Below are positions 3,690 to 63,717 of a stretch of 64,000 bases of DNA, piece after piece. Location of the stretch: the sequence record OZ346212.1. One strand, given 5' to 3'. The position numbers and the translations under genes were made by a program. Every line of letters starts with the position of its first letter. Position 1 is the stretch's first letter. Source of the DNA: a phage. The notes under the pieces are model-generated. The model was not told where the DNA came from. It saw nothing but the letters and a program-made list of their open reading frames with translations, and searched no databases.

Positions 3690-3974
3690 ATGGTAGTAGA
3701 ACCAACAAAAACATTTACATCCATGACTATCCCTGTTATTATGCAGGTGGAGTGTGTTCAGGTATCTCAAGTGTGGCCTGGCACCAAAATCCCGACAGGG
3801 CCTGATTTCTTTCAGGTTGGCAAAGTGTACAATGTCTGGAAGGCACCAGATTGTTACCCTTTCATCAAAGATGACCGTGGGATGCTGTGGTATCTTGGAA
3901 ATGATTTGACACTGCACCTTGGGAATGCTATTATTGCAGTATTCAGACTTAACAAGAAGGAGACTGATCAATGA
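3690..3974 (+). CDS. hypothetical protein
   Basis: ATG 3690 preceded by AAGAGGAG; longer track ORF (from 3600) would overlap the polymerase 3' end. Confidence 0.5.
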   Translation: MVVEPTKTFTSMTIPVIMQVECVQVSQVWPGTKIPTGPDFFQVGKVYNVWKAPDCYPFIKDDRGMLWYLGNDLTLHLGNAIIAVFRLNKKETDQ

Positions 3975-4198
3975 CGACTTTGGTTAAAGCTACCTTTGTA
4001 GAAGAAAAGATGACAGACCTGTCATTCTTTAAAGAAGGAAAGACCTACGAGGTTTATTACGATAAAGCTCGTGCAAATAAAATGATTAAAGACGAGGAAG
4101 GGGTTGCCTGGTTTATCTCCCATCTGGCAAACGGTGAGTATCATATCTACGGAACCACCCTGCTTGCCAAGTTTGTAGCTGTTGAAGAGGACCTATGA
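3971..4198 (+). CDS. hypothetical protein (75 aa)
   Basis: Track ORF, start overlaps upstream stop (ATGA), co-directional compact packing. Confidence 0.55.
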   Translation: MTTLVKATFVEEKMTDLSFFKEGKTYEVYYDKARANKMIKDEEGVAWFISHLANGEYHIYGTTLLAKFVAVEEDL

Positions 4199-4389
4199 AA
4201 GTAAAGTATCTGGCTGAGGGTATGAGTAGGTATTTCACCCTTGGTGAAGAATATTGGCCATTTACAAGCAACGGCGATGTCTACGTGAAAGATAATTTCG
4301 GCACGCCATGGTTTTTGCACCCTAACGGGTTAGGGTATTCTATTTATCGCAGTGCAATGAGCGACACAACCCTTGCAGAGTTTGTATAG
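4195..4389 (+). CDS. hypothetical protein (64 aa)
   Basis: Track ORF, ATGA overlap with upstream gene. Confidence 0.5.
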   Translation: MKVKYLAEGMSRYFTLGEEYWPFTSNGDVYVKDNFGTPWFLHPNGLGYSIYRSAMSDTTLAEFV

Positions 4390-14693: not shown

Positions 14694-14880
14694 TTTCGAG
14701 AAAATTGTAAAGCGCCCTCATGATTCCGAAGAGCTGCCAGAACGCCGCCAGCGTAACAATAAACTGAATAAGCCAAAAAGGTTTGGGAAGATCTGGCGTA
14801 ATCATTATGATCGTAAATTGCCCGGCCTACTTTTGGAACGTGAACGACAGGCAGAACGATACCGCCATAAAGACAAATAA
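14683..14880 (+). CDS. hypothetical basic protein
   Basis: Internal ATG 14683 after AAGGGGGG; R/K-rich. Confidence 0.45.
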   Translation: MKINFEKIVKRPHDSEELPERRQRNNKLNKPKRFGKIWRNHYDRKLPGLLLERERQAERYRHKDK

Positions 14881-14888
14881 CAACCAAC

Positions 14889-14917
14889 GCCCCGCCATTG
14901 TGCGGGGCTTTTTATTT
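14889..14917 (+). terminator. rho-independent terminator
   Basis: GCCCCGC-cattgt-GCGGGGC followed by TTTTTATTT. Confidence 0.7.
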
Positions 14918-15037
14918 CTATCCTACGAATAGCGCCCCTGGTTGGCCCTGTAAGCGCCAAAAAGGCCCCCACCTATGCAATCGCCCCTTTAACCTGAAAA
15001 CATCGCCCAGGGCCGTTTCATGGCGTTAAAAATATCA

Positions 15038-15065
15038 TTGACATCGTCAACAGGTTAGCTATACT
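15038..15065 (+). promoter_or_regulatory. sigma70-type promoter (TTGACA-16-TATACT)
   Basis: Hexamers 60 nt upstream of ATG 15098. Confidence 0.6.
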
Positions 15066-15097
15066 AACCACATCAAAGAGAGAAAGGAGTAAACGCC

Positions 15098-15358
15098 ATG
15101 CGTAAATTAAAAAATTTTGATAAAGTTGATGTTATCCTGAATAATTTTTACTACTGCAACAACAAGGCTATTTGGTGGCGTGATAGTTCCACCGATAAAG
15201 TCAGGGCGCGCTTTCTTCAGGGGCACTGGCAAGGCCGCCCAGTGATTAAAATCATGGGGCAATCGGTAGCGTTTAAAAATTGCCGCCGTGTTGATGACGT
15301 TGAGGAGATTTTAAACATTTTGCGCCACAATAATTTAAAAAATAGTGTTGACAAGTAA
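15098..15358 (+). CDS. hypothetical protein (86 aa)
   Basis: SD AAAGGAG then ATG. Confidence 0.55.
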   Translation: MRKLKNFDKVDVILNNFYYCNNKAIWWRDSSTDKVRARFLQGHWQGRPVIKIMGQSVAFKNCRRVDDVEEILNILRHNNLKNSVDK

Positions 15359-15375
15359 GCCTCAATAAGTATACT
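15348..15375 (+). promoter_or_regulatory. sigma70-type promoter (TTGACA-16-TATACT)
   Basis: Overlaps last codons of upstream gene; followed by leader hairpin GGCGGGAA-aac-TTCCCGCC. Confidence 0.6.
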
Positions 15376-15432
15376 TAAACACACAGGCGGGAAAACTTCC
15401 CGCCACTAACAAAGAAAATAGGAGAAAATATC

Positions 15433-16056
15433 ATGACCACCGTTAACATTACCGCAGGTTACAATTTATCTTTCGACGTGCTGACCGACGAACAAAAAGA
15501 AAAAGCCGTTGAAATGGTCCGCGAAAGAGAAGAACACAGCGGGGATAACTTTTTTGCAGAAAGTGTAATTGAATACTATAAAGAATATGTTTTTCCAGAG
15601 TATGGCCTTGAAGATACCGAAGTACATTGGTCAGGCTTTTGGTGCCAGGGTGACGGCGCGTCAATCAGTGCTGAAAACGTGGATTTAGAAAAATTTTTAC
15701 GTAAAGTAAAGGCCCTGACCAAGTTCCGATCAATTCGTCACTTGTTCGGCACAATGCACGATGGCGAGTTATCAGCCAGTGTTGAACGCGACAAGTACAG
15801 CCATTACAGCCATGAAAACACTGTAAGCGGGTACATTGATACCACTTGGCTAGATCTGACCGCCAAACAAGAAAACAAAGTGGAAGACCTGGAAGAACTG
15901 ATCACCGAGACGGTACGGGAGCTATCCCGCAAGGTTTACGTAGACCTGGAGGAGGCCTATCTAGAACAGTTCACCGCAGAAAACCTGATCGGCCTTATCG
16001 AGGCCAATGATTGGCGGTTTGATGTCGATGAATATGGTGAGATGACTTTTTCATAA
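15433..16056 (+). CDS. hypothetical acidic protein (207 aa)
   Basis: SD TAGGAGA; strongly D/E-rich. Confidence 0.6.
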   Translation: MTTVNITAGYNLSFDVLTDEQKEKAVEMVREREEHSGDNFFAESVIEYYKEYVFPEYGLEDTEVHWSGFWCQGDGASISAENVDLEKFLRKVKALTKFRSIRHLFGTMHDGELSASVERDKYSHYSHENTVSGYIDTTWLDLTAKQENKVEDLEELITETVRELSRKVYVDLEEAYLEQFTAENLIGLIEANDWRFDVDEYGEMTFS

Positions 16057-29273: not shown

Positions 29274-29744
29274 CTACTTAAATAGTAGTTCAAAATAGTG
29301 CAAAATTAACAGAAGTTGAACTACACCTAGTGCAACGGCGAGTATGTTAATCTTAGAATCGAAAAACTTCTTAACTTTTACTCTAAAAGGTTCCTTAATG
29401 TCCTTTACGATCCTATCTATAGATGACCTCATATCTCTGATTACCATCCTGAACATTAAAGACGGATGCTCCCCCATCTCCGTAACGGAATCGAAAACAT
29501 ACTCTCTTCGGTCATAAGGGCCGCCAGCTCTGCGTATTAACCTCTCCACAGAGACCTCGAACGTCACACCTGTAACGTAATCATCTATAACAAGTCGTGA
29601 CGGGTCTTTACCTTTACTATCAAGAGGTATCAAAGTTATCTTTCCAGATTTTGTTAAAATTTCCCCTTTTTCAAGCAAGGTGTACCAATGCTCTCTGCCA
29701 AGACTGTTGAGGCACGTTTTTACATATTTAACAAACATCGTCAC
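29274..29744 (-). CDS. hypothetical protein with C-terminal TM helix (156 aa)
   Basis: C-terminal ILAVALGVVQLLLILHYF. Confidence 0.5.
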   Translation of the reverse strand: MTMFVKYVKTCLNSLGREHWYTLLEKGEILTKSGKITLIPLDSKGKDPSRLVIDDYVTGVTFEVSVERLIRRAGGPYDRREYVFDSVTEMGEHPSLMFRMVIRDMRSSIDRIVKDIKEPFRVKVKKFFDSKINILAVALGVVQLLLILHYFELLFK

Positions 29745-31874: not shown

Positions 31875-32159
31875 CTACCAGGTTACTGTCAAGTAGGCAA
31901 CCGTATTATTTTTCTCTGGGGAGATGCCAACAACATCTACCTGCAGACCTCCTGCCCTTAAATCTCCAACAATGTGCGGGAAGTAATCTGAGAGATGCGA
32001 GGGTAGATTTATCGAAAATCCGCACCCCAGAAAGCCTGCTAACGCTTTATTTTGTATCTCCCCTACAATCGCATCATAAATGGAGTTAAGCTCGTCAGGG
32101 AGCGTTACAGGACGTTTTAGCGCTAACTGGTGTAATTTGTCCTTAGCACTCATTTTCAT
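31875..32159 (-). CDS. hypothetical protein
   Basis: Internal Met (MKMSAKDK) gives 4-nt overlap with upstream gene; track ORF extends to 32189. Confidence 0.5.
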   Translation of the reverse strand: MKMSAKDKLHQLALKRPVTLPDELNSIYDAIVGEIQNKALAGFLGCGFSINLPSHLSDYFPHIVGDLRAGGLQVDVVGISPEKNNTVAYLTVTW

Positions 32160-32689
32160 TTCAGGTCTACCTCTGGTGGTGCCAACCACATAAATGGCGG
32201 CAAGCCTAAACGGTTTTTCTTATCCCACACAAAATATGCATATGCTTGCCCGTCAGTTCTGCCATTTGATTGAAAAGATGGACGCTTAGATATTGTGATC
32301 ACAGTGGTAGGTGCATTATCAAGCCACCATTCAAATCTGGCTTTGCTTTCCAGAAAATTAAGACGCAAAAGCATAATAACTACGTCAGCATCTTTCAACG
32401 CCTTGTCTACAAACTCACGAGCCAAACTGTATGGTGGGTTGGTGATAATACAGTCAACATGGTTGTATTCTGTATTCAGATAGTCAACACCTTCTTGGAT
32501 TTCTCCCCATGCAGATCCTAACGGCATACGGGAGTAGAACACACCTGAGGCACTATTCCTGCAAGGCTCTAAGTAGGTCCAGTCTTCTGGGAACGGAATA
32601 AGGTCATACAGCCCTTCTGCACACCACTCCGGTGTCACATACTCATCGTAGGCGTTACGTTGTTCATCAGGTTTTCGAGCACAAGTCAT
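32156..32689 (-). CDS. putative N6-adenine methyltransferase (NPPY motif)
   Basis: CIITNPPYSLAREF catalytic motif IV. Confidence 0.45.
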   Translation of the reverse strand: MTCARKPDEQRNAYDEYVTPEWCAEGLYDLIPFPEDWTYLEPCRNSASGVFYSRMPLGSAWGEIQEGVDYLNTEYNHVDCIITNPPYSLAREFVDKALKDADVVIMLLRLNFLESKARFEWWLDNAPTTVITISKRPSFQSNGRTDGQAYAYFVWDKKNRLGLPPFMWLAPPEVDLK

Positions 32690-32740
32690 GCAAATCTCCA
32701 GATCATAAAAGCCCTCCGAAGAGGGCTTTAGAATTAATGT

Positions 32741-33790
32741 TTAAGCTTCTTCGACAATTCCTGCACCCAGGATTTTTTCATTGAGCTCTTTTGCTGTTTT
32801 AATAATATTGTCCACCAGACGCTTGCGAGTCTTATCTTTTACCTTAACCTCTTCACCGCCGTTCAGGGTTGTCTTCAATTGGGACAGAATGTCTTGAAGT
32901 TCAACGACAGAGAATCGCTGCAGATCTTCTGAGGTAATCTCGCCTAAGGCAATCTTAACGGTCTCACCACTTTCCATCTGCAGGTTCAGGAACACAGTGT
33001 GAACATCACCTTTCGAACCACCCGCTTTTGCAGATTCAACAGCATGAACTAGCTCATCTAAAGAGGTGCACTGGTGAATCTCCGGAAGACCTGCTTCACC
33101 TAGCACACCTTCTTCATCACCTTTTGCCAAAAGCTTTTTAGGTTTTTGTCCGTTCTGGATGCGTTGTATGTTGCCTTCATCCAGAATGATAGCTCCAGTT
33201 CGAGCTGCCAGCTCCTCTCCGTCCAACCACACTTCGCCACCCGCTGTGATGGATGCGATCTCATCTTCTGTCAGCACCCAACCGTAGTATTTTTCGATCA
33301 GGCGTTCGAAACGTTTTTTCCAGTAGCTGACCTGAGTATTCATGTTCACACCATTGCCATAAGTGCCGCCTTGATAGTAGTGGAACATAAACTCTGTGTC
33401 CGGAGCCACAGTGCGTTCTTTGCAACCCAGCCATAGGATTGTTCCAGCAGAGCAGCACATCCCTTCAGCATGTGCAACAACGCTTGCCTGAGACTCGCGG
33501 AATGCCTGTAGATAAGCCATTGCAATGTGCACGCAACCCCCAGGGCTATTGATGATCACACGAATGCTTTCTTCCGGCTGAGCCATACGGATCGTCTGCA
33601 GACGAGACATATGATCCTGCAGGTCCTCCAAATCGTCGATATAAAGAACGTGGTCAACAACAGGTGTTGGGTAGCTGTATGTTTCCATAATACCACCCGG
33701 CATACCAAACATTTTATTACTCATAGGTTCGAAACCGTTCTGTTTTTCTTTCATGCCGTGTACCATGGTTCTGCGAGGTGTTAAATTCAT
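32741..33790 (-). CDS. ClpP/S14-family serine peptidase-like protein with C-terminal extension
   Basis: INSPGGCVHIAMAYLQAF...GMCCSAGTILWLGC resembles ClpP core around the catalytic Ser. Confidence 0.6.
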   Translation of the reverse strand: MNLTPRRTMVHGMKEKQNGFEPMSNKMFGMPGGIMETYSYPTPVVDHVLYIDDLEDLQDHMSRLQTIRMAQPEESIRVIINSPGGCVHIAMAYLQAFRESQASVVAHAEGMCCSAGTILWLGCKERTVAPDTEFMFHYYQGGTYGNGVNMNTQVSYWKKRFERLIEKYYGWVLTEDEIASITAGGEVWLDGEELAARTGAIILDEGNIQRIQNGQKPKKLLAKGDEEGVLGEAGLPEIHQCTSLDELVHAVESAKAGGSKGDVHTVFLNLQMESGETVKIALGEITSEDLQRFSVVELQDILSQLKTTLNGGEEVKVKDKTRKRLVDNIIKTAKELNEKILGAGIVEEA

Positions 33791-33850
33791 GAGAAATCCT
33801 TAATATTGGAAGTTGAAAGCTATTTATTTAAACCTGATTCACATTTACCT

Positions 33851-34162
33851 TTATTTAGCAATCACTATGGAATACTTACGATTGTCAGAAGCATCACAAC
33901 TCAATGATTGCCAGTCTACCACATACCACGTATCATTGTCAACAATTACTTTATCGCCTGTTCTGTAGCAAGTGCTGCTTTCAATAATTCGAGACTCGAT
34001 AAAGAATCTGTGTCGGCGCTCACGTAGCAACGCTAAGTTAATTATATTACCACCGCTGTCCTTGGTCCACACATTCTTGGATCCCTTATTTGCCAAAATT
34101 GTCTCGCCGTTATAGACAAACAGGCAGTATATTTTATTCAGTTTCTCTTGTATTGTAGCCAT
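33851..34162 (-). CDS. hypothetical protein (103 aa)
   Basis: Track ORF. Confidence 0.5.
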   Translation of the reverse strand: MATIQEKLNKIYCLFVYNGETILANKGSKNVWTKDSGGNIINLALLRERRHRFFIESRIIESSTCYRTGDKVIVDNDTWYVVDWQSLSCDASDNRKYSIVIAK

Positions 34163-34263
34163 ACTGTCCTTCTCTCTGTTTTGTCCGATAATAATATCTA
34201 AAGCTTACCTATTTGTCAACAACTGTTTTAGATATTTAAGGGTGGAATAACCACCCTTCTGTA

Positions 34264-35052
34264 TTACTCGGAAACAGGGGTCCAAATATGATTTGCACGA
34301 TCCTCAATAAGATTGAGTGCGATCTGACGACCCAACCCAGAACGAACGACATCGTCTGGACTATCAAAGCTGATCATTCCAACCTCAGGATCTGGATGAC
34401 GAGTAAAGAAATCCGTCACCCATGCAAGGCCAGATTTACCAGGGATGTCACGTTGGCTATTATCACCCATAATTACAAGGGTGGCTTGATCAGAGATCCT
34501 TGTGATAATTGACAACATTTCTTCAGGGTTAGTTTGCTGTGCCTCGTCAATCAGGACAAAGCATCGCTCATCGAAACTACGACCACGAATGCTTTCAACT
34601 TCACAAATCTCGATACGGCTGTTCTGACCGTCTCCCAGCATTGCGGCAAAAGCACCTTTGCCAACACGACGACAAATCGTGTCCATCATGCTTCGAAGAT
34701 AGGGCCACAGTTTCTGCATTGCATTTCCAGGTTTAAATCCTGAAGTCTTTCCTGTCTGAACGTAAGGACGTGCAACAATAATCTTATCAATCTCGTTCTT
34801 ACGCAGAAGATCACCTGCATATGCAGATGCCATGAATGTCTTACCGGATCCAAACACACCGTTTACAATAATAATCTTACGTGACCCTAGATAATCAAGA
34901 TACTTTTGCTGCTTCTTATTCATTGGTCTGAGAGCTGGAGCGGTGTGCTCTCTTTCGTCAGCAAATTTCTCAGCAGCCTTACGCAGGCGATCAGATTTGC
35001 GAGCCTCTCTAGCTTCATCACGCATGCGTTTTGTTTCTTTAGCTCGACCCAT
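34264..35052 (-). CDS. phoH: PhoH-like ATPase
   Basis: Walker A GVFGSGKTFMA and PhoH-typical downstream motifs (VLIDEAQ...). Confidence 0.8.
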   Translation of the reverse strand: MGRAKETKRMRDEAREARKSDRLRKAAEKFADEREHTAPALRPMNKKQQKYLDYLGSRKIIIVNGVFGSGKTFMASAYAGDLLRKNEIDKIIVARPYVQTGKTSGFKPGNAMQKLWPYLRSMMDTICRRVGKGAFAAMLGDGQNSRIEICEVESIRGRSFDERCFVLIDEAQQTNPEEMLSIITRISDQATLVIMGDNSQRDIPGKSGLAWVTDFFTRHPDPEVGMISFDSPDDVVRSGLGRQIALNLIEDRANHIWTPVSE

Positions 35053-35090
35053 GTTGGGACTCCTTTCAGATTGAGATGTGCCAAGTACTT

Positions 35091-35441
35091 TTACTGCAAC
35101 AGTTTTTCAATAGCCGCTTCCATGCTGCTTGCAACAGCCTGAACTCGGATATTCATCTCTTCTTGGTGGATCAGCTCCTTAAGCTCTTTAATGGTAAATT
35201 CTTTAGAGAAACCTTCCACCATAATCTTGTGCAAGGCTTCTTGCGTGTCTACTTGCAAGAACTTTTCCAGTTTGTTGGCAGAGGCTTCTAAATCAGCCCG
35301 AATACGAGGGTCATCTGTGCGATTCAGCATTAGGCGTAAGCCATCAAGATTAGTAGAAATAGCATCTGCATGTTGAGTAACTAACCGTGGCAAAATGAGA
35401 TCTACAAACTTATTAGCCAAATCGATACGTTCTTGTGTCAC
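35091..35441 (-). CDS. hypothetical protein (116 aa, GTG start)
   Basis: Track ORF. Confidence 0.5.
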   Translation of the reverse strand: MTQERIDLANKFVDLILPRLVTQHADAISTNLDGLRLMLNRTDDPRIRADLEASANKLEKFLQVDTQEALHKIMVEGFSKEFTIKELKELIHQEEMNIRVQAVASSMEAAIEKLLQ

Positions 35442-35551: not shown

Positions 35552-35613
35552 TTGGCACCTCCTCTGCTTTCATTACGGCAATTATAACCAACTCAACAAA
35601 GCTTTGTCAACAA

Positions 35614-36087
35614 CTAGTCTACCTGAACCCAACCGCCTGATACTTTTTTAAACATTCTTTGGTTATCACTGCCTCGGAACGGTTTCTTGGTTGGTAAATC
35701 TTTTACATACTTACCGTCAATGATGATATCAGCCAGTTTAATAACATCACTAGAGATATGGTCAAATGTGAACCCAGTATATACAAGAATAGTTTTCTTG
35801 TCACCAAATTTTTCCTTAATTTTCTCCATCAGGCTAATAATATCTGGCTCATTATAGTATGCTAAGGGTTCTCCACCCAGTAGAGAGATACCGCACACAG
35901 ACGGGTTATCTAAATCTGACAAGATTTTTTGCAAGTCTTCTTCAGTGAACTTCCTCCCCTTATCTTTTGACCAAAATGCCTGATTAAAGCAACCAGGGCA
36001 AGCGTGTGGGCACCCAGATACCCACAAGGCAGTTCTAATACCTGGTCCTTCGGTGTAAGATATTTCTGTGTATCCAGCAATGTTCAT
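35614..36087 (-). CDS. nrdG: anaerobic ribonucleotide reductase activating protein (radical SAM)
   Basis: CxxxCxxC cluster VSGCPHACPGCFN. Confidence 0.8.
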   Translation of the reverse strand: MNIAGYTEISYTEGPGIRTALWVSGCPHACPGCFNQAFWSKDKGRKFTEEDLQKILSDLDNPSVCGISLLGGEPLAYYNEPDIISLMEKIKEKFGDKKTILVYTGFTFDHISSDVIKLADIIIDGKYVKDLPTKKPFRGSDNQRMFKKVSGGWVQVD

Positions 36088-36263: not shown

Positions 36264-37532
36264 TCAGCAACCACAACTTCCGTAGTGCTTAACTCGCTCG
36301 ATAACTTCCGCTTGCTTACCTTTATTGTAAGGACGGGAGTTAGGACTGGAAAGGTATCCAGACACACGTCGAATTACACTGATCGTTCCCTCTTCATGGT
36401 TTCCACACTCTGGGCATACAAAGCCTTTAGCTGTTGCACTGAACTCACCAGAGAAACCACACTTGAGACATTTATCCACAGGTTGGTTAATACCAAAATA
36501 CATAATGTGTTTATACCCGAAGTCAACAAGAGCCTCTAAAGCATCCAGGTTGTTTTTCAGGTTAGGTGTTTCTACGTATCCGATGTTGCCACCAGAGGAT
36601 ATCATAGCAAAACCTTCTTCATACTCCCACTTATCAAAAGGAGAGCTATTGATCCATACTGGCTGATGGAAACTGTTGGTGAGATATTCATGCTCGTGCT
36701 TCAACACTTCAGGATATTCACGATCCAGACAGGTTGCAGCTTTATAGCATAGACTCTCAGAAGGGGTGCCGTACAAACTAAACGCTAGTCTACTTTTCTT
36801 CTTGTATCGCTCACAAGCATCTCTCATGTGCTGAAGTATTCCAAGAGCTAAAGCCTTGTCACCCTCTCTGCCCAAAATCTGACAGGTTTCATACACACCA
36901 ATATACCCAATACTGATGGAAGCGTACCCGTCATAGAAGAGTTTATCAATACTCTCTTCAGGATCCAGGCGAGCAAGAGCGCCTTCACACCACATGATAG
37001 GGTTCTGCCCTGCCTTAGTGCCTTTCAGACGGTTAACCCTTACAAGGTGAGCTTCATATGCCAAATCCAGATACTCGTCAAGAACGGAAAAGAAATCAAC
37101 ACCTTCCGTCTTAGCTTTTGCCGCAATCATTGGCAGGTTAAGACTAACAACACCCAAGTTGAATCTGCCGAGGTATTTCTCCTCACCTGTTTCCAAGTCA
37201 TTGTATTTGCTAAGAAAACTCCGGCAACCCATGCTCGTTACTTTACCATCTGTCGAGCCTGTCACTTTACGATTTAGTGGAACAGAAACAAAGTCAGGAT
37301 AAATCCGCTCTGCAGAGCATTCCAGAGCTAATCGTTTCAAATCATAGTTAGGATCTCCAGGGTTCATGTTGACACCCTCTTCTAGGAAGAACAACACTTT
37401 AGGGAACACAGGTGTGATACGTTCTTCACCAAGACCCATTTTGTGGACTTTCAAGTAGTTTTTGGTAATCATTCTACCAAAGACTGAGGTGTCCAGACCT
37501 AAACTTAATGTGATGAATGGAGTCTGCTGTCT
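36264..37532 (-). CDS. nrdD: anaerobic ribonucleoside-triphosphate reductase, exon 2 (glycyl-radical half)
   Basis: In-frame upstream extension RQQTPFITLSLGLDTS...; MGCRSFL active-site Cys, RRVSGYL glycyl-radical motif, C-terminal CxxC...CxxC. Confidence 0.75.
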   Translation of the reverse strand, partial: RQQTPFITLSLGLDTSVFGRMITKNYLKVHKMGLGEERITPVFPKVLFFLEEGVNMNPGDPNYDLKRLALECSAERIYPDFVSVPLNRKVTGSTDGKVTSMGCRSFLSKYNDLETGEEKYLGRFNLGVVSLNLPMIAAKAKTEGVDFFSVLDEYLDLAYEAHLVRVNRLKGTKAGQNPIMWCEGALARLDPEESIDKLFYDGYASISIGYIGVYETCQILGREGDKALALGILQHMRDACERYKKKSRLAFSLYGTPSESLCYKAATCLDREYPEVLKHEHEYLTNSFHQPVWINSSPFDKWEYEEGFAMISSGGNIGYVETPNLKNNLDALEALVDFGYKHIMYFGINQPVDKCLKCGFSGEFSATAKGFVCPECGNHEEGTISVIRRVSGYLSSPNSRPYNKGKQAEVIERVKHYGSCGC

Positions 37533-38332
37533 CCTCCCTGTGTTTCCACAGGGCCAGACTATCTCTTACTCTACTTCAATAAGATAATAACCCTTTATTG
37601 TGAGATGCTTACCTTCGGCATTTCCTTCGATAGCCCTATGAACGTTACCTACGTTCAAATTTAAGGCTTTTGCACAGGCATAGAGTGAAGGATATTCACC
37701 CACCAAGGTTTTACCTTTGTATGCCTGCACTTTCCTATAGCACTTACCTGGACAAAGTCCTGTTCGGAAAGCATGTCTCTTATTATCTTCCGGCAAAACC
37801 CACTCTAGGTTAGACGGATGATCATTCAATGTATTGCCATCTTTATGATTCACTTCCCAGTTTTCAGGGTCTTCTGGGACATCCGGCAAACAATACAAGG
37901 CAACAATCCTTGAGGTTTGGATTCGAATCTTTTTACCTTTGTGGTTGAAAGAGTACATATAACGGCGTTTAACATGCTTGTTACCTTTTCCATAACCTCC
38001 CCACAATATTGGGTGTAGCATTCCACGTTTTCCGTATACGTTTCCAACCTCATCAATCACATAGTTTGATTCTTCACCATTAAGAATGATCTTTTTCATA
38101 GAGCCTCTCCATTTCGAAGTTAGTATTTCAACTAACCCCTACACTACTTGGTTCAGAAATGTTTGTCAAGCATTTCTGCCTTTCGTTAGTCGTTACAACC
38201 GTTCCAACTCCTGTAAGAACTAGTCACGGGATTGGCATAGCTTTCGCCTTAGCGTTCCCCGTTAGCCGGATTTACCGACCCCTCTTATGAGGTTAGGAGA
38301 GTTTTACAACGGCCAGTTTGTTAACCGTTGAC
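37533..38332 (-). mobile_element. putative group I intron (T4-like core) in nrdD, HNH ORF in 3' region (boundaries approximate)
   Basis: 5' portion contains CUAACGGGGAAC...CAAUCCCGUG, matching the T4 td intron core AAACGGGGAAC...CAAUCCCGUG; exon 1 ends in U, insert ends in G; splice restores INTLTS|RQQTPF. Confidence 0.6.
37566..38099 (-). CDS. HNH homing endonuclease (intron-encoded)
   Basis: WEVNHKDGNTLNDHPSNLEW HNH signature; lies between the two nrdD halves. Confidence 0.8.
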   Translation of the reverse strand: MKKIILNGEESNYVIDEVGNVYGKRGMLHPILWGGYGKGNKHVKRRYMYSFNHKGKKIRIQTSRIVALYCLPDVPEDPENWEVNHKDGNTLNDHPSNLEWVLPEDNKRHAFRTGLCPGKCYRKVQAYKGKTLVGEYPSLYACAKALNLNVGNVHRAIEGNAEGKHLTIKGYYLIEVE

Positions 38333-39184
38333 AGAAGTTAACGTGTTGATTTGATAGAGCAAAGTCTGCATGCTGTCAAATACGTCTTTATCTGTCATTT
38401 GCATTGCAACAGTTTCAGCATCCGGCAACCAATGTTCCTGGCAAAATTTAAGGTTCTTCTCATAGGTTGCTTCAGCATACTGTGCCAGATAATGATCAAT
38501 ATGGCTCATAGTCTGACCACCATATTGAGCACTAGCTACCGCACTAGAGATTTGGCTAAGGATTGTTGTTGCAACCCCTATTGACTTCGGCTTACTGACA
38601 TGGGCGTTACCAATGTTGAATCCGTTTTCCAACATATCTGGATAATTTACCAAACAACAGTTTGTTAACGGACTGATCAAGTAGTCAAGATCATGCACAT
38701 GGATGAATCCTTTATTGTGCTCTTCGGAGACACGGTCTGGCAGGATCTGTGTTGATGCAAGGTGTTTGCTAAGAATACCTGCAAGCAGGTCGCGATGAGT
38801 GTGTACATGATTAGTAGGCTTATTTGCGTTTTCTTTTGTAAATTCATCACAAGTTCGATCCAAGAAGCCACTAATATCTGCAAGCAGTTTTCCACCTGCC
38901 TCTCTGTTATTATCTCTTGTCTGTCTATACTGGATGTATTCTCTGGCTGCACATTTTAAACCCATATCCATAAGAGCATCTTCAACAAGGATATGGATAT
39001 TTTTTACAGAGATCGTGCACTGGTCGGTTGGTAGATTGTTAGCAACAACTTCATTAACCGCGCAGGCGATCCGGTAAGCTTCTTCTTCAGTATGTCCAGA
39101 CTCAAGTAAGGCGGACTCTGCCGCCTTGATCACCTTAATTCCGTTATAGAACTCTTCTCTACCGTCCCGTTTTACAACTTTCAC
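38333..39184 (-). CDS. nrdD: anaerobic ribonucleoside-triphosphate reductase, exon 1 (ATP-cone and N-terminal half)
   Basis: MKVVKRDGREEFYNGIKV ATP-cone start; ends ...LYQINTLTS just before the intron. Confidence 0.75.
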
Positions 39185-44887: not shown

Positions 44888-45481
44888 TCAAATACCTTCT
44901 AAAAACTTTCCTATTTTATACCAGCTATTAGCGGTATAGTCAACACTGACCTTTAACTCCTCAAATTGCTCATAAGGCGTATCTTTTAGGATTTTAATAA
45001 CTTCAGGGCGTGAAGCGAATTGGTTCAGGTATTCATGCCTGTCGTCAATTATAACATCTACAGCCACATTTCCCTTGAAATGCGTGGCGTAGAAGCCGTG
45101 ACCCTGGGTGTGATCGTCCAGATCCATAAAATCACTAGTCCAACGCTTTAAGAACCTTGATTTAGATGCAAGGTGACCTTTCTTGCATACCGAGATAAAT
45201 GCAAGCTTGTGACCACGAGCCACCAAATCTTTCATAACCTCAATAGCCCCCTCTTCAGGCTTAAGAAAGTCGTAGAGGAACGGGTCACTCCAGAAATCAA
45301 AAGGCCCTATGATGTTTTCTTTGGGGCGATCAGGCCAATACTTTGACAGATCGTAATACATTAACCCATTAGAAGGTTTAGTGACTGTCTTACTGGCTGG
45401 ACCATATAAACGCTCCAACCACTCCCACCATGCTGTTCCTGAATCTACCAGTGTCAAATCTACATCAATACCGATTAACAT
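44888..45481 (-). CDS. HAD-superfamily phosphatase (possible 5'-nucleotidase)
   Basis: N-terminal DxDxT motif in MLIGIDVDLTLVD. Confidence 0.45.
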   Translation of the reverse strand: MLIGIDVDLTLVDSGTAWWEWLERLYGPASKTVTKPSNGLMYYDLSKYWPDRPKENIIGPFDFWSDPFLYDFLKPEEGAIEVMKDLVARGHKLAFISVCKKGHLASKSRFLKRWTSDFMDLDDHTQGHGFYATHFKGNVAVDVIIDDRHEYLNQFASRPEVIKILKDTPYEQFEELKVSVDYTANSWYKIGKFLEGI

Positions 45482-46092
45482 TCTTCTTGGGCCTCTTTAG
45501 CATCAATATACTTGCACACAATCTCCGATGCACATTCCCAAGGTGCACCTTCAGGGTTTACAACATCGAACTCAATTCCTTTTATTCCGTTCTTTTCCAG
45601 ACTTAGATAGGTTCTGGAATCATTTCCCCAGTCATATCCGACACGGTGAATACGGAACAACAACAGATCTCCACCTGTGCTGTACGCGTACTCGCTAAGG
45701 CATGCCAGCTCCTCTTTGAATCCACCATCGGAGTAAACAACAACCCCTTTACCTTTAGGGAAATCTTTCTTCAAAGATGCGACTGCGGCTTTACCGAAAG
45801 CATCTTCACCAAAGATAGGTTTAATCAGATTTTCACTACAATGGATCATCCATTCTCGCGGAGAAACATGCTTGCCGTCTATCATTAAGAAAGGGCAAGG
45901 CTCTTCTTTGTAGTGGCGGTCATAAAGTGCATTCCAGAGTTGAGGAGTTACACCAGCTGCCTTAATTGCCACACTGAAGAGCATCTCCTTAACCTCACGG
46001 TGGTGTGAGTTAGGAATAGCTTCCAACAAGAGATCTGCAATGTGATCCTTACCACTGCTGGGTGGGGCGTTAAGAACAATAATATCCATCAA
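45475..46092 (-). CDS. putative deoxynucleoside monophosphate kinase
   Basis: P-loop-like NAPPSSGKDH resembles T4 gp1 SGVKRSGKDT; nucleotide-metabolism context. Confidence 0.4.
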   Translation of the reverse strand: MMDIIVLNAPPSSGKDHIADLLLEAIPNSHHREVKEMLFSVAIKAAGVTPQLWNALYDRHYKEEPCPFLMIDGKHVSPREWMIHCSENLIKPIFGEDAFGKAAVASLKKDFPKGKGVVVYSDGGFKEELACLSEYAYSTGGDLLLFRIHRVGYDWGNDSRTYLSLEKNGIKGIEFDVVNPEGAPWECASEIVCKYIDAKEAQEEC

Positions 46093-46292
46093 AAACCTCC
46101 GTGGTATTCTTCAACTGCATCAATAATACTTTTACACTTATCTACCAGCTCGTTAGCCACTACAGCATCGTCTTCCCAAACAGCTTCCTCGATCTGATCA
46201 AGCAATGATCGCATCTTACCCATCATTTCTGGGATAAAGTCTTCTGAAAAGCTGTCTGGAATTGTTAACTTTAGTGTCATTGCGTTCTCCAA
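46089..46292 (-). CDS. hypothetical protein (67 aa)
   Basis: Track ORF. Confidence 0.45.
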   Translation of the reverse strand: MENAMTLKLTIPDSFSEDFIPEMMGKMRSLLDQIEEAVWEDDAVVANELVDKCKSIIDAVEEYHGGF

Positions 46293-46307
46293 TCATACTA
46301 TGCGTTA

Positions 46308-46766
46308 TTAGAAGTTTGTTTTTACACGTCCCTTTTCATCAACCTCGTTGTTGGCTAGAAGCGTTACAAAGTCTGTGAAACGGACATGAAGAACTCTTTT
46401 CTTATCAAGGTATCCTAAAGCCACCCCTGAGAAATTTAGCATCAAAGGGGCTAAAGAAGCTCTGGCACTGAAATGCTGTTGTTCTACCCTTCCAACACCC
46501 TTAGTGTAGGATGGGTTAAGATTGTAAGTTCTGAATCCCAGTTTTGTTGGAGCTTTAGAATTAAAAACAACTTTATAGCGTTTCTTACTCAACTTATGCT
46601 CCAGGATAAGCATTCCCTTATCACCCTTGATAAGTTGAAAATCTGTAAAGTGCTCTTTTAATACGAAAGGTAGTGCCAGTCCCATCGCCTGCCCCCTTTG
46701 TACCGCTGTCTCACCAAAAGCTTTTGCATCAGTAAGTTCTTTGGTCAAGTCTATGCTTTTGATCAT
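46308..46766 (-). CDS. hypothetical protein (152 aa)
   Basis: Track ORF. Confidence 0.5.
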   Translation of the reverse strand: MIKSIDLTKELTDAKAFGETAVQRGQAMGLALPFVLKEHFTDFQLIKGDKGMLILEHKLSKKRYKVVFNSKAPTKLGFRTYNLNPSYTKGVGRVEQQHFSARASLAPLMLNFSGVALGYLDKKRVLHVRFTDFVTLLANNEVDEKGRVKTNF

Positions 46767-47577
46767 ACCTAGTCTCCAAAATGTATTGTAGTTCTTTCTT
46801 ACCTATACTCTTCATTCCGGCAGTCTTACCTGCTTCTTCTTGAAAAGAAGAATAGCATTCAGCAAACACTCTGTCAACACCGTCAACTAAAGATTTTATG
46901 AAATATGTTGATTCTTCAGATTTTGGGTCATCCTCCCCCAATACTTTTCCAGCATTATACCCAACACGTCTTACACAGAAGTCGTAGTCATCTGGAGTGC
47001 TAAAAGAAAATAACTTATTCTCCCCAATCTCTACAGGATCCCTGTTGCACGCCTTTTTCTCCCAAATTTGGAAAACACACGGCACGTCATAAGGTTTGCC
47101 ATTAAGTAGAAACGAGTTCTTAGGGCACCTTTCACTGTAGACAAGGTGCATCGACATGTCCAGTTTGTTTGCAAAAAATATTTTTTCAAATGTCCGTGGC
47201 AAGATGAAGGCTATAGCCCCTCCAAGCTCTAGCAATGATGCACAATGGTTAAAGAATTTGCAAGCTAAAGATGAATTCTTGCCAAATGGTGGGTTACCTA
47301 TGAAGACATCTGCCTTGGGATGCACCTCCAAGAAGTTTGCCTGAATGCACGGTGTTGGTCCTTCAAATTCAGGATCTGGTACTAGATCGTAAGACAGTAT
47401 CTCTGAAAATAGTTTTGAAAAAGAACCCCTTCCAGCAGAAGGCTCAACGTATGCACAATTTCCATACTTATCTTTTACTTTACCAACAAGATATTCTGCA
47501 TACTCAGGGTTTGTGTAATATTTGTCGTTGGACTCTTTCTTGCTCAAAGTGCCTCCAAAAGGAAAAGGGAGGCGCAA
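46729..47577 (-). CDS. putative adenine-specific DNA methyltransferase
   Basis: AdoMet-binding-like PSAGRGSFSKLF and catalytic DVFIGNPPFG. Confidence 0.5.
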   Translation of the reverse strand: MRLPFPFGGTLSKKESNDKYYTNPEYAEYLVGKVKDKYGNCAYVEPSAGRGSFSKLFSEILSYDLVPDPEFEGPTPCIQANFLEVHPKADVFIGNPPFGKNSSLACKFFNHCASLLELGGAIAFILPRTFEKIFFANKLDMSMHLVYSERCPKNSFLLNGKPYDVPCVFQIWEKKACNRDPVEIGENKLFSFSTPDDYDFCVRRVGYNAGKVLGEDDPKSEESTYFIKSLVDGVDRVFAECYSSFQEEAGKTAGMKSIGKKELQYILETRYDQKHRLDQRTY

Positions 47578-47593
47578 GCCTCCCTATACTTGA

Positions 47594-48583
47594 TTAGATT
47601 ATCTGAATCAGGGTGTTTTTCATTTCTTCTCTGGTACGGATGTTGTTACGGTCACGAACAACAGATCCACAACCTTCGCAGCGATATGTTTTAAATGCAC
47701 TCAGTTGAGTATACGCCAAAGCTTCTTCCTCGTGAAGGTGTTCTCCACCGCAGCGTGGGCAACGAACTTTTGGCTCCTCATCCTGGTAGTACAATGACAT
47801 ATTGGGGTGCTGCTTAGCAAACGGGCGTGCCAGCAAATACAGGCCTTCCAGAGATAGGATATCACCAACATTGTACTCCCGCATCTGTTTAAACGCCTCA
47901 AGATCACCATGAACACACTTGATCCACATTTCAAATGTGTGGTCAATCAGTTTCTGTCGGGCAAGTTGGAAGTATTTGCATGCATACTCCAAAGTGTTTG
48001 CATTCAAACGGAATGCCTTCTTGATCATTTTAAGGGTGTCAACCTCTTTGTATGGGCTTGTTGGAGGCAACCCGTGAAATGCAAATCGTTGGTTTGCCCA
48101 CCCACAGTCAAAACCTGAATTGTGGGCTACTGCGACATCACATTTATCCAGATAATACCACAAGTCCTGAATCAATTCGAGGTCATTGTGAATATCCTCA
48201 TCCCACATTTTGTAATCGGGAAGAGCGCAGTCAACCACACTAGGACTGTCTAACCACTTACCTGCGAAAGTTAGCATATAGGGCATAATTTCAATACCGC
48301 AGGTTTGAATGTTGGTCTTATAGTGCCCAAAGAACCAGCCGTTTGTTGGTGATGTTTCTGTATCATACACCCAAACTTTAGCTCCTTTGTGTTCTTCAAG
48401 GAAGCGCTCAGTTGCTTCTCCTACAATCTCTGACATATTCTCTTGTGCACGTTTAAGCTGTAGTCGGATCCAACTCTCACGTGACTCACGGCCTAAAAAT
48501 TCACGAGCAATTTGTCTATTAGTGTATCCCTGCTGCTTTAGTGTTAAAATTTGCTCAAGAGTTAACTTTGTCATCATCGTCAA
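47594..48583 (-). CDS. DnaQ-like 3'-5' exonuclease with N-terminal HTH and C-terminal zinc ribbon
   Basis: Exo motifs VWVYDTET and VAHNSGFD; CPRCGG...CEGCG. Confidence 0.5.
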   Translation of the reverse strand: MTMMTKLTLEQILTLKQQGYTNRQIAREFLGRESRESWIRLQLKRAQENMSEIVGEATERFLEEHKGAKVWVYDTETSPTNGWFFGHYKTNIQTCGIEIMPYMLTFAGKWLDSPSVVDCALPDYKMWDEDIHNDLELIQDLWYYLDKCDVAVAHNSGFDCGWANQRFAFHGLPPTSPYKEVDTLKMIKKAFRLNANTLEYACKYFQLARQKLIDHTFEMWIKCVHGDLEAFKQMREYNVGDILSLEGLYLLARPFAKQHPNMSLYYQDEEPKVRCPRCGGEHLHEEEALAYTQLSAFKTYRCEGCGSVVRDRNNIRTREEMKNTLIQII

Positions 48584-49355: not shown

Positions 49356-49936
49356 TAAGCATCTGCGAGATCGGCCTTACCTTGTACCAAATTGATCCCA
49401 TCTAGGAACCCAGGTTCAGATACTTCGCAGGCCTTAACCATCAACTTTTTATCCATCGTAACAGGTTTCTTCACAGTATGCTCTTTACCTGTCTTTTTGT
49501 CAAGCTTTTTCTTCTCCTCAAAAGCAAGTTCCTCAGGAAGATGACTACGAGCAAACTTTTTGGCAGTTGTTGGTGTCACAGTGTGGACCTTAAACAGGCC
49601 GTCATTTTCACAATCAGCTAAAGCATCCCAAAGCATAACTTCAAGACCGTAAAACAACCCAGCCAGTTCGCGTGTGGCATCCCCGCGTGATCCAAAGGAA
49701 AGCCCTTCCATAACCACGGTGTCAACGCCGTGCGTGTGGATGTAATATCTGACCTGTTTGCAGATCCAGTCAATACGCTCAGCAGCTGTTGCAAAAGAAA
49801 CCGTCCCTGGTTTCTTCTCTTTTGCAGATGAGCTTTGAGTTCGTAACACAACCTTATGAACAGGCTTTCCATCGTCCCATACAACGCAAGCTGTGTGTGT
49901 CAACGACTGGTCTATGGATAATAGACGCTCTCTCAT
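49307..49936 (-). CDS. putative RuvC-like (RNase H-fold) nuclease
   Basis: LLSIDQSLTHTACVVW, VVMEGLSFGSRGD and DLADAYWIG resemble RuvC-family catalytic segments. Confidence 0.4.
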   Translation of the reverse strand: MRERLLSIDQSLTHTACVVWDDGKPVHKVVLRTQSSSAKEKKPGTVSFATAAERIDWICKQVRYYIHTHGVDTVVMEGLSFGSRGDATRELAGLFYGLEVMLWDALADCENDGLFKVHTVTPTTAKKFARSHLPEELAFEEKKKLDKKTGKEHTVKKPVTMDKKLMVKACEVSEPGFLDGINLVQGKADLADAYWIGRAHLEGLSQSVK

Positions 49937-50265
49937 GCTTCCTCGTCCTCCTCTCCTTCATCAGGAGCATAAGCCTTATCTTTGAACAAGACGAGAGAGC
50001 AAAGCTTAACATCTGTTTCCACACTGGTGAACATGCATAACCGCTCGCCCTCAATCAGCTCACAATCCTCTTTTAAAACAGCAGACCATACACGGTCATC
50101 TGCGTAATCATCCGTGTACAGGATGTATGAAATGGTGTCATCTTCATACAACCGCCACATACCTGTGGCAACAACGAATGTATTTTTTGTTTTAAGTGTC
50201 CCTGTTGTGTGATCATCCTCAAAAACAGCTTCCATAATTGCGTTATCTACAGCATTTTTAGTCAT
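49933..50265 (-). CDS. hypothetical protein (110 aa)
   Basis: Track ORF. Confidence 0.5.
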   Translation of the reverse strand: MTKNAVDNAIMEAVFEDDHTTGTLKTKNTFVVATGMWRLYEDDTISYILYTDDYADDRVWSAVLKEDCELIEGERLCMFTSVETDVKLCSLVLFKDKAYAPDEGEEDEEA

Positions 50266-51404: not shown

Positions 51405-51705
51405 AGACCCTCCTGTTAGTTATTCTGCAAGATGGTTGGATGCTGTAATGGAATGCATCATCACTCTCTGCAATAAGTGACTCAACATCCCAATACTTTT
51501 CAAAAAGGAACGGATTAGACCCCCAGTGGTGGGTTATTTTCATCAAGGAGTCTGGTATCATATAACCACAGATCTTAATTACATCGCCAGGTTGAATTGT
51601 GTTTTCATGAAGGTTGCTTGCCTTCTTCAGAATCATACCTTTATGATTCTCGTTTGCATACAACTGGACAATATCTTTATCTTCAACAATAAAAATTTTA
51701 AGCAT
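51397..51705 (-). CDS. hypothetical protein (102 aa)
   Basis: Track ORF. Confidence 0.5.
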   Translation of the reverse strand: MLKIFIVEDKDIVQLYANENHKGMILKKASNLHENTIQPGDVIKICGYMIPDSLMKITHHWGSNPFLFEKYWDVESLIAESDDAFHYSIQPSCRITNRRVFE

Positions 51706-51764
51706 ATCTAGTTCTCCTAGTTTATAGATATCTGACCGATAATATCAGATTAATAACACTTTTG

Positions 51765-52058
51765 TCAAGACTTTTTAGTCTTTCTTGGAGAGCTTTTTGT
51801 TGATCTTTTCCTTTTGTGGTAGATTCCAAGTGCAGCGTTTTCTTGGGCGCACGTTTTAACAGTTCTCAGAGAAGAACTTTCAGCTTTAGGCAGGTTTAAC
51901 TCCCACCAACCGAGCCAGTAAAGTTCTGATTCCGACAGCTGCTCAGATTCAGCCTTCCGATACAATGATTGCATACCTCTAATGATGTCGTCCAGAGGTG
52001 TATCGAATACAAAAGCTGTCTTATCGAATTTCTCTTTTACAGGTCTCTTAGCCATCAA
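51765..52058 (-). CDS. hypothetical protein with basic C-terminus (97 aa)
   Basis: Track ORF; ...HKRKRSTKSSPRKTKKS. Confidence 0.5.
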   Translation of the reverse strand: MMAKRPVKEKFDKTAFVFDTPLDDIIRGMQSLYRKAESEQLSESELYWLGWWELNLPKAESSSLRTVKTCAQENAALGIYHKRKRSTKSSPRKTKKS

Positions 52059-52563
52059 GGTAACCCTCTATCCACGAAAAGTCAGTCTTCCATTCTGGAA
52101 CTTTACTAAGCTCACGCCACTCTGCAAAGCAGTCTCGGTAATACGCCTCTGCCATACTCTTGGTGATCTTATTCACCTTAGCCAACTGATTAACTGCCTG
52201 AGCATACTTTCCACGGATATTTGCTAACCCAGGATGCACCGATGTGTGACAATCCGGGCACAGTGCTATCAGTCCGACAAGCCGGATCACTCCCTCTTCG
52301 AAAGTGTAAAGTTCATGACACTCCACTGGGTGTTTGCTGCCTTTACCGCCGCACACCTCACAAGTGTAGTTGGCTTCTCTATAGCACTTCTTACGTATCT
52401 TATCCCACTCACTCTTCTTCACAGCGTTTCGGAGGTTATTATACCAAGCTGTTTCTGGGATCAGTTGCACAATAAGCCTGCGTTCAGACTTCATTAAACG
52501 TCCGTCTTCCACGTGTTCTCCCTCATTCAAAGAAATGGGTGCGAGGGCAGGAACCTGCCTCAC
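52048..52563 (-). CDS. HNH endonuclease (free-standing)
   Basis: CEVCGGKGS...HPVECHELY...CPDCH zinc/HNH motif pattern. Confidence 0.6.
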   Translation of the reverse strand: MRQVPALAPISLNEGEHVEDGRLMKSERRLIVQLIPETAWYNNLRNAVKKSEWDKIRKKCYREANYTCEVCGGKGSKHPVECHELYTFEEGVIRLVGLIALCPDCHTSVHPGLANIRGKYAQAVNQLAKVNKITKSMAEAYYRDCFAEWRELSKVPEWKTDFSWIEGYLDG

Positions 52564-63318: not shown

Positions 63319-63717
63319 ATGATTTCAGGTTTAACATGGCTGAGTAGGTATAGAGGGATCATAAAAGGTTTAGTTTTTGCAGCGGCTATAGGTACAGCTT
63401 ATCTTGGGGCCGTGTATTGGTTTAACTCTAAGCTTAATGAAGCCTACCAAGAAGGTGTGTTAGCAACAGAGTTGAAGTGGGAACGGATCCTTGATCAGCA
63501 ACAAAAGCAGGCCGACAAAATTAAAATGGGCCACGCAGAGGAGGTTAAAAACCTTGAAAAATCCCTTTCTGATCTACAGGATAAATTAAATATAGCTGAG
63601 AGGGCAGGTAGAGAAAAGCAGATTATCTACCTCCAATCACCTGAAGGTAAGAAGTCAACACTTCCTGATCAGCTTATAGATATTTATAATGAGAGTATCA
63701 ATCAGGAGGATCGATGA
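63319..63717 (+). CDS. putative i-spanin (Rz-like)
   Basis: N-terminal TM helix LVFAAAIGTAYLGAVYWF then charged coiled-coil-like periplasmic region; overlaps lipoprotein gene by ATGA. Confidence 0.5.
   Translation: MISGLTWLSRYRGIIKGLVFAAAIGTAYLGAVYWFNSKLNEAYQEGVLATELKWERILDQQQKQADKIKMGHAEEVKNLEKSLSDLQDKLNIAERAGREKQIIYLQSPEGKKSTLPDQLIDIYNESINQEDR

Follow-up and report, generated by a model that had tools for sequence, protein, structure and literature searches.

A ClpP-like gene near phoH in Vequintavirus phages is predicted to encode a non-structural serine peptidase with a divergent unfoldase-docking pocket

The ClpP-like gene and its neighbours

The window analyzed here is a stretch of 64,000 nucleotides (nt) of phage DNA (sequence record OZ346212.1), and the subject of this study is a gene for a ClpP-like serine peptidase located on its minus strand (32741..33790). 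The coding sequence starts with ATG, encodes 349 amino acids (aa) plus a stop codon, and is preceded by an AAGGA Shine-Dalgarno-like motif 6 nt 5' of the ATG. The surrounding stretch (32000-35100) was 100% identical to Escherichia phage magaca and 98-99.7% identical to more than 100 further rV5-like phages (genus Vequintavirus); the source phage of the window is a Vequintavirus. The gene corresponds to rV5 ORF122 and to magaca_39, and its product had 100% identity to the magaca protein and 99% to the rV5 counterpart. It is already catalogued in GenBank records, in the rV5 genome paper, and as PHROG 5410. The annotations read "ClpP ATP-dependent protease subunit" for rV5 ORF122 (349 aa), "ATP-dependent protease subunit" for magaca, and "ClpP-like protease" for the BASEL phages, and the rV5 gp122 family appears to have been named by homology throughout. 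To this known gene we add a predicted non-conserved unfoldase pocket, a lineage-specific C-terminal domain, and a quantified linkage to PhoH.

An earlier note, made from the letters of this DNA, had called the product ClpP-like. The open reading frame (ORF) is real, and Pfam, PHROG 5410, and the modelled fold agree on its nature. The Pfam family CLP_protease (PF00574, MEROPS clan SK) matched residues 59-168 with an E-value of 2.3e-12 (47.6 bits against a gathering cutoff of 20.2). PHROG 5410, named "ATP-dependent protease", matched over almost its whole profile (residues 24-345 on positions 4-322 of 323; E 7.7e-155).

The gene lies between PhoH and a methyltransferase, as had been described, and a small ORF also intervenes on the PhoH side. 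The PhoH-like P-loop ATPase (34264..35052, minus strand; Pfam PhoH, 3.6e-47) is a recurrent upstream neighbour of the ClpP-like family. The small conserved ORF between them encodes 103 aa (33851..34162, minus strand) and equals rV5 ORF121 (phrog_5456). In Seunavirus EC152, a homologue of 102 aa likewise separates PhoH from the ClpP-like gene. A BLAST comparison of ICP1 gp209 and gp210 with the small ORFs found at this place in Vequintavirinae gave no similarity, and only ORF121 and the 102-aa ORF of EC152 are related to each other. Directly downstream of the ClpP-like gene is a DNA methyltransferase (32156..32689, minus strand; phrog_799, 5.5e-67), whose position is kept in Seunavirus and Certrevirus.

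Just upstream of ORF121 and the ClpP-like gene, we found a predicted sigma70-type promoter of near-consensus sequence, TTGACA-17-TATTAT (34191..34219, minus strand), an 11/12 match that equals P121 of rV5 and is a pattern match only. The ORF121 homologue and the ClpP-like gene probably share a transcript. A GC-rich hairpin without a T-run, AAGGGTGG-ttatt-CCACCCTT (approximately 34233-34254, minus strand), also lies between P121 and the stop codon of PhoH.

Two labels in the magaca record are mistaken. The ORF121 homologue (33851-34162) is called "PhoH-like protein", and NrdG (35614-36087, minus strand; phrog_626, 1.9e-54) is called "putative minor capsid protein". This "capsid" label close to the ClpP-like gene in magaca is spurious, because the gene that bears it is NrdG.

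Fold and catalytic residues

An AlphaFold model of the ClpP-like protein was built on 20 homologues. Conservation was scored in 20 family members with 40%-69% identity, and the homologues of ICP1, KVP40-like phages, Pakpunavirus, and CR8, together with Escherichia coli ClpP, were then added. The N-terminal region (aa 1-44; 33659..33790, minus strand) is basic (isoelectric point 9.4) and predicted to be disordered (residues 1-42 in the model), with a predicted local distance difference test score (pLDDT) of about 40. It carries the family motif FG.PG...Y[ST]YP, in which F28 and G29 are nearly invariant and Y40 and P41 invariant, and its sequence is unlike that of the axial (gating) loop of ClpP.

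The following segment is a ClpP-fold catalytic core (aa 45-215; 33146..33658, minus strand), modelled with pLDDT values of 80-93 and containing a long "handle" helix (residues 150-169). The core model superposed on many solved ClpP structures in Foldseek (E approximately 3e-9), with target-normalised template modelling (TM) scores of 0.66-0.73 and a root-mean-square deviation (rmsd) of about 3 Å over 160-175 residues. After the core comes a variable linker (aa 216-265; 32996..33145, minus strand; pLDDT 43-58) that differs in sequence and length among homologues, and then the C-terminal domain described below.

The putative catalytic residues are Ser114 (codon 33449-33451), His137 (codon 33380-33382), and Glu186 (codon 33233-33235). 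Ser114, His137, and the G84-G85 oxyanion loop were invariant across the 20 members, and they remained so when the distant homologues and E. coli ClpP were added. The third position of the triad, Asp171 in E. coli, is Glu186 here and Gln in 16 of the 20 homologues. This assignment comes from a HMMER alignment to Pseudomonas ClpP, the MAFFT alignment being unreliable in the segment; the MAFFT placement of E. coli Asp171, L189, and R192 was not used for that reason.

The replacement of Asp by Gln in 16 of 20 members is what one would look for in a catalytically weak or non-proteolytic protein, that is, a crotonase-superfamily scaffold kept for a structural, chaperone-like, or binding role, and the conserved and unusual charged surface formed by R77, E99, H107, and E109 would suit such a role as well. 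We regard this explanation as very improbable. Ser114, His137, and the GG motif of the oxyanion loop (G84, G85) are invariant even at 25%-30% identity, which argues for selection on catalysis.

The ClpX/ClpA docking pocket and the "ATP-dependent" label

In E. coli ClpP (mature numbering), the pocket that receives the IGL/IGF loops of ClpA and ClpX is formed by L48, F49, A52, F82, L23, Y60, Y62, I90, M92, F112, L114, and L189 (bioRxiv 10.1101/820209). In the alignment with the rV5 gp122 family, Y60 corresponds to R77, F82 to E99, I90 to H107, M92 to E109, F112 to T127, and L114 to A or S129; L48 and F49 have no counterpart because of a deletion. In the family, each of these changes was invariant or near-invariant. 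As judged by this alignment, the ClpX/ClpA docking pocket is not conserved in the rV5 gp122 family, and "ATP-dependent" is thus a label without support. Databases commonly use the name "ATP-dependent protease subunit", which probably misleads, the unfoldase-docking surface being unconserved.

The NCBIfam equivalog for clpP (TIGR00493) scored 33.2 bits against a cutoff of 308.6. We conclude that the protein is a divergent ClpP-fold peptidase and not a cellular-type ClpP. With E. coli ClpP (MEROPS S14; TIGR00493), it appears from the model to share the fold (TM approximately 0.7, rmsd approximately 3 Å), the catalytic Ser and His, the oxyanion glycines, and the handle helix. It differs in having only about 22% identity, an unconserved ClpX/ClpA pocket, an unrelated N-terminal gating loop, Glu or Gln in place of Asp171, and an extra C-terminal extension of 134 aa.

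These observations bear on the possibility that the gene encodes a true ATP-dependent protease core, which would replace or mix with host ClpP, be powered by ClpX/ClpA of the host or an ATPase of the phage, and redirect regulated proteolysis during infection. The GenBank name "ClpP ATP-dependent protease subunit" implies such a role. The ClpP fold with its handle region and the conserved catalytic Ser and His are compatible with this, and candidate motors exist: the P-loop ATPase PhoH, whose gene recurs upstream in the same orientation, and a MoxR ATPase that the genome encodes as well. We nevertheless consider it unlikely. Of the eight mappable IGF/IGL-pocket residues, six have changed to charged or polar ones, and a further two are lost by deletion, invariantly in the family; the N-terminal sequence is unrelated to the axial loop and predicted to be disordered; and the clpP equivalog score of 33 bits is far from 308.6. 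PhoH is not known as an AAA+ unfoldase or to possess an IGF-type loop, which also counts against this possibility.

A separate head protease in rV5-like phages

The earlier note had assumed that ClpP-family proteins of phages are usually prohead proteases, which overlooks the large non-structural families PHROG 5410 and PHROG 1827. It had also placed the gene far from any capsid gene, and mapping onto annotated relatives confirmed that the window contains none.

The head module of the rV5-like phage EduardKellenberger has the order terminase, portal, a 139-aa "prohead protease", scaffold, decoration protein, and major capsid protein (MCP). The 139-aa protein matched Pfam Peptidase_S78_2, the XkdF-type phage serine protease (65 bits against a cutoff of 24), as well as PHROG head-maturation families; the MCP matched Phage_cap_E and the portal matched Portal_Mu. 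The end of the window coincides with the start of the terminase gene in magaca, and the head module begins about 2 kb past the right end. The two coordinate systems were joined through the i-spanin ORF (63319-63717 in the window, 45335-45733 in magaca; offset 17984). In magaca, the XkdF-type protease (49608-50027) is 33.8 kb away from the ClpP-like gene (14757-15806), which is on the opposite strand; the MCP is at 51463-52473. The position outside the structural module that had been proposed is thereby borne out: the head genes lie on the opposite strand with an S78_2 protease of their own, and capsid and scaffold genes, although found just past the right end, are separated from the ClpP-like gene by about 34 kb instead of adjoining it.

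Two proteases of this kind also occur together in other phages. ICP1 has an XkdF homologue (40% identity), annotated as "capsid protease" in the late capsid cluster gp122-126, plus the ClpP-like gp211 near PhoH gp208; in the ICP1 capsid paper, the capsid protease was not experimentally identified. In Pakpunavirus HJ01, the gene between portal and scaffold encodes an S78_2 protein (76 bits), and a short ClpP-like gene is present separately. Published virion proteomes agree with this division. Mass spectrometry (MS) of rV5 virions detected 19 proteins, and locus 122 was not among them. In virions of Certrevirus CB7, 26 proteins were detected, including the "prohead core protein protease" of the head module (CB7_5), and no other protease was mentioned. 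The ClpP-like protein is very likely not the prohead protease.

The rV5 paper describes gp133 as a "predominant" virion protein, and we considered whether this could be the ClpP-like protein. It is a separate gene 3 kb downstream, with two peptides only. The gp133 homologue (phrog_7821, "virion structural protein") is located at 29274-29744 on the minus strand, inside the non-structural block and approximately 3 kb downstream of the ClpP-like gene. Two peptides in the rV5 MS are the basis of the structural call for gp133; in the gene table of rV5, one transmembrane domain is predicted for it, and the BASEL label is "putative glycosidase".

Some annotations of the head module deserve mention. 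In many RefSeq and GenBank records (e.g., FV3, FFH2, and SYGMH1), the XkdF-type prohead protease of rV5-like phages (EduardKellenberger 3957-4376) bears an incorrect label, either "DNA methyltransferase" or "DNA-binding protein". The source is probably its best PHROG, phrog_1530, which carries that name, presumably via fusion proteins. In magaca, the terminase large subunit (46017-47883), which lies just outside the window on the right, is annotated in two or three pieces, which is consistent with the interruption of terL by an intron and a homing endonuclease reported for rV5.

Genomic context and linkage to PhoH

The order ribonucleotide reductase (RNR) genes, glutaredoxin, PhoH, one to three small ORFs, ClpP-like gene, and methyltransferase was found in Vequintavirus (rV5, EduardKellenberger), Seunavirus EC152, and Certrevirus CR8. 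ICP1 has nrdA, nrdB, PhoH, two ORFs, the ClpP-like gene, and a ligase, and in a KVP40-like phage, the ClpP-like gene is between frd and a DNA-repair gene. In Alteromonas phage V22, PhoH (CDS-146) and a Clp protease (CDS-147) have been described as adjacent.

To extend this comparison, 79 IMG/VR loci with relatives at 31%-97% identity were fetched; 490 candidate stretches were confirmed overall. The flanks of the 79 loci were scanned with hidden Markov models, and dereplication at 70% identity gave 24 clusters, 23 of them with at least 3.5 kb of upstream flank. PhoH was present upstream on the same strand in 13 of these 23 clusters, ending 118-2049 nt before the ClpP-like ORF, and NrdB was upstream on the same strand in nine. 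The chance expectation for PhoH in that 2.5-kb same-strand slot of a 130-kb genome is about 1%, and the observed figure is inflated by inherited synteny. The search for an rV5- or Pakpunavirus-type MCP, portal, XkdF protease, or terminase within 8 kb was negative in all 79 loci.

A PHROG census of 143 neighbouring ORFs from 12 non-Vequintavirinae loci returned mostly PhoH, RNR subunits, clamp loader, exonucleases, and DNA-binding proteins. The sole head-category match noticed was a "minor head protein" ORF in one locus (L026), 7 kb off and on the opposite strand. The census also contained six counts of phrog_2, "terminase". We read these as a probable P-loop cross-match, because the count equals that of PhoH and the PhoH of the window cross-matches phrog_2.

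The earlier note had allowed for an unusual genome arrangement. Our results showed the opposite, since this placement is the norm of the family, being found in Vequintavirus, Seunavirus, Certrevirus, ICP1, the KVP40-like phage, and the 79 IMG/VR loci. A whole family of predicted non-structural ClpP-fold peptidases has been kept beside phoH across distant myoviruses (rV5-like, ICP1, and marine phages).

The pairing of PhoH with the ClpP-like gene could be inherited synteny or functional coupling, and a literature search for a paper that discusses it found none. Under functional coupling, the two genes would form a module in which the phage PhoH-like ATPase works with the ClpP-like peptidase, a proposal to which we give only a slim chance. 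PhoH might then be a non-AAA+ partner, or both proteins might act on a shared nucleoprotein substrate, and the ClpX/ClpA docking site would be replaced by the conserved charged surface R77, E99, H107, and E109. If this were true, phage PhoH, a widely used marker gene, would gain a concrete biochemical role.

Timing of expression

In ICP1, the genes gp205-gp211, including PhoH gp208 and the ClpP-like gp211, are classed as "Middle-late", and the capsid genes as late. The authors of the rV5 genome considered genes 82-163, which include ORF122, as one transcription unit, apart from the late genes 27-66 with their T4-late-like motif. In the nucleotide-metabolism block of the window, we also observed a sigma70 consensus promoter (35581-35610, minus strand; 12/12 match), which equals the predicted P118 of rV5.

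The C-terminal domain

The C-terminal extension supposed by the earlier note is real; its length is not 150 aa, as stated there, and is close to 134 aa (residues 216-349), made up of the low-confidence linker of about 50 aa and a folded domain of about 80 aa. The domain (aa 266-349; 32744..32995, minus strand) is modelled as a beta-hairpin followed by three helices, and F293, E297, and R322 are invariant. Its pLDDT was 70-86 in the full-length model (residues 266-343) and 81.7 when it was modelled alone (16 sequences).

Searches for relatives of the domain gave little. Pfam at a permissive E-value returned noise only, and its profile found nothing significant among Protein Data Bank (PDB) sequences, with weak matches (E 0.1-1.2) to GINS Psf1 and SAP-like motifs (2rno, MANF). 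Foldseek found no fold match in the PDB (best E 1.6). The pattern F..EL..IL...R..L had suggested a SAP/HeH-like DNA-binding motif, and this candidate was dropped when the Foldseek search of the PDB came back empty. The search of BFVD gave one match, an unnamed 303-aa protein of family-like length (TM 0.80).

Against 1.84 billion representative proteins, the profile of the domain had six matches. Three were full-length ClpP-like proteins (313-355 aa) with the domain at their C-terminus; the others were a 144-aa protein, a 53-aa protein, and a weak match in a protein of 1269 aa. The C-terminal extension of ICP1 gp211 was not among the matches in this set. The environmental relatives are mostly 180-260 aa long and lack the domain. 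It is a lineage-specific (Vequintavirinae) module on a flexible tether, almost confined to the ClpP-like family.

A non-structural ClpP-fold peptidase as the best explanation

We consider it likely that the gene encodes a non-structural ClpP-fold serine peptidase of the rV5 gp122 family (PHROG 5410), a second protease beside the capsid-maturation protease. Our own analysis provides the evidence for the ClpP fold, for the conservation of Ser and His, for the lost pocket residues, for the separate head protease, and for the genomic context and how it is conserved; the absence from two virion proteomes and the middle-late timing of the ICP1 homologue come from published papers. The oligomeric state, the catalytic activity, and the cytoplasmic substrates are inferred, as are the function of the C-terminal domain and the independence of ClpX/ClpA.

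The gene would probably be transcribed from the sigma70-type promoter with PhoH and the nucleotide-metabolism genes, before or alongside the late genes. The product would probably assemble into ClpP-like rings, because the modelled fold has the handle helix. Peptides or unfolded proteins would probably be cleaved in the infected cell via Ser114 and His137, with Glu or Gln as the third residue of the triad. Canonical use of the host unfoldases ClpX/ClpA is most likely absent, because the hydrophobic docking cleft appears to be replaced by family-invariant charged residues. The tethered domain specific to Vequintavirinae would be the best candidate for a module that recruits substrates or partners. 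Our best guess is a cytoplasmic, self-compartmentalised peptidase. A host-directed or regulatory role, as the earlier note suggested, is plausible.

Several points weigh against a non-structural peptidase. With Gln as the third triad residue in 16 of 20 members, activity may be low or depend on something else. The pocket mapping is a sequence alignment at about 22% identity, in a well-aligned core, and not a structure of a complex. The timing is that of ICP1 gp211, which has 36% identity and belongs to another phage. The literature on phage-encoded ClpP, rV5, ICP1 gp211, and Vequintavirinae ClpP contained annotation-level mentions only, with no report of activity, oligomer, or substrate. The rV5 and CB7 MS datasets are shallow, so that absence from these virions is weak evidence. 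Prohead proteases, moreover, are often missing from mature virions, and a protease domain followed by a C-terminal tail is typical of prohead proteases too. By score, the best curated family was NF045542, "head maturation protease, ClpP-related" (60.3 bits, below its cutoff of 120), ahead of cellular ClpP (33-39 bits), and PHROG head-maturation families matched the protein at 3.9e-21 to 1e-14. Because of these family matches, the protein may have a capsid-related origin and even a capsid-related role.

These scores also argue for a morphogenetic protease, that is, an additional ClpP-related enzyme that serves in maturation or in processing the scaffold although its gene is remote from the head module, and whose C-terminal domain would target procapsids in the manner of HK97-type and lambda C-type tails. 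Such an enzyme would share the layout of protease domain, linker, and C-terminal domain with prohead proteases, it would need no docking pocket inside a capsid, and the "middle-late" class of ICP1 gp211, which is not early, would fit it. We find it improbable all the same. Vequintavirus, ICP1, and Pakpunavirus have a dedicated XkdF/S78_2 protease between portal and scaffold, whose equivalent was detected in CB7 virions; the ClpP-like protein was undetected in those of rV5 and CB7. The gene is amid replication and nucleotide-metabolism genes, not head genes, in the 79 loci, and the T4-like KVP40-like phages also have it in a replication cluster. The NF045542 score is half the cutoff of that family.

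Among known systems, the rV5 gp122 family (PHROG 5410; e.g., magaca_39 and BASEL bas59_0158) represents the same gene, and its members agree in length, in the arrangement of domains, and in their place between PhoH and the methyltransferase. The short non-structural ClpP-like proteins of PHROG 1827 (ICP1 gp211, KVP40-type, Pakpunavirus, and many IMG/VR contigs) have a homologous core (1.3e-39), the same replication and nucleotide-metabolism context, and frequent linkage to PhoH; they differ in being mostly 180-260 aa long and in lacking the Vequintavirinae C-terminal domain. The ClpP-related head maturation proteases (NF045542; PHROGs 1684, 94, 2976, and 133) resemble the protein in fold class, in their frequent C-terminal extensions, and probably in needing no unfoldase. 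They differ in that the protein stays below the NF045542 cutoff and its gene is surrounded by replication and nucleotide genes, with no portal, scaffold, or MCP gene beside it. The search with PADLOC for an association with defence or anti-defence gave no match.

The rV5-like BASEL phages and ICP1 are genetically tractable, which makes the question of function directly answerable. Degradation of host or defence proteins by the peptidase, or its cooperation with PhoH, would, if true, explain the roles of two widespread phage genes.

Other features of the nucleotide-metabolism block

The nrdD gene, for the anaerobic ribonucleotide reductase, is split in the window (36264-39184, minus strand). 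The N-terminal part (38321-39184) covers phrog_487 positions 4-293, and the C-terminal part (36264-37472) covers positions 312-714. The two pieces are parted by an HNH homing endonuclease ORF (37566-38099), probably as an intron or a homing-endonuclease insertion. In rV5 and EduardKellenberger, nrdD is one uninterrupted ORF.

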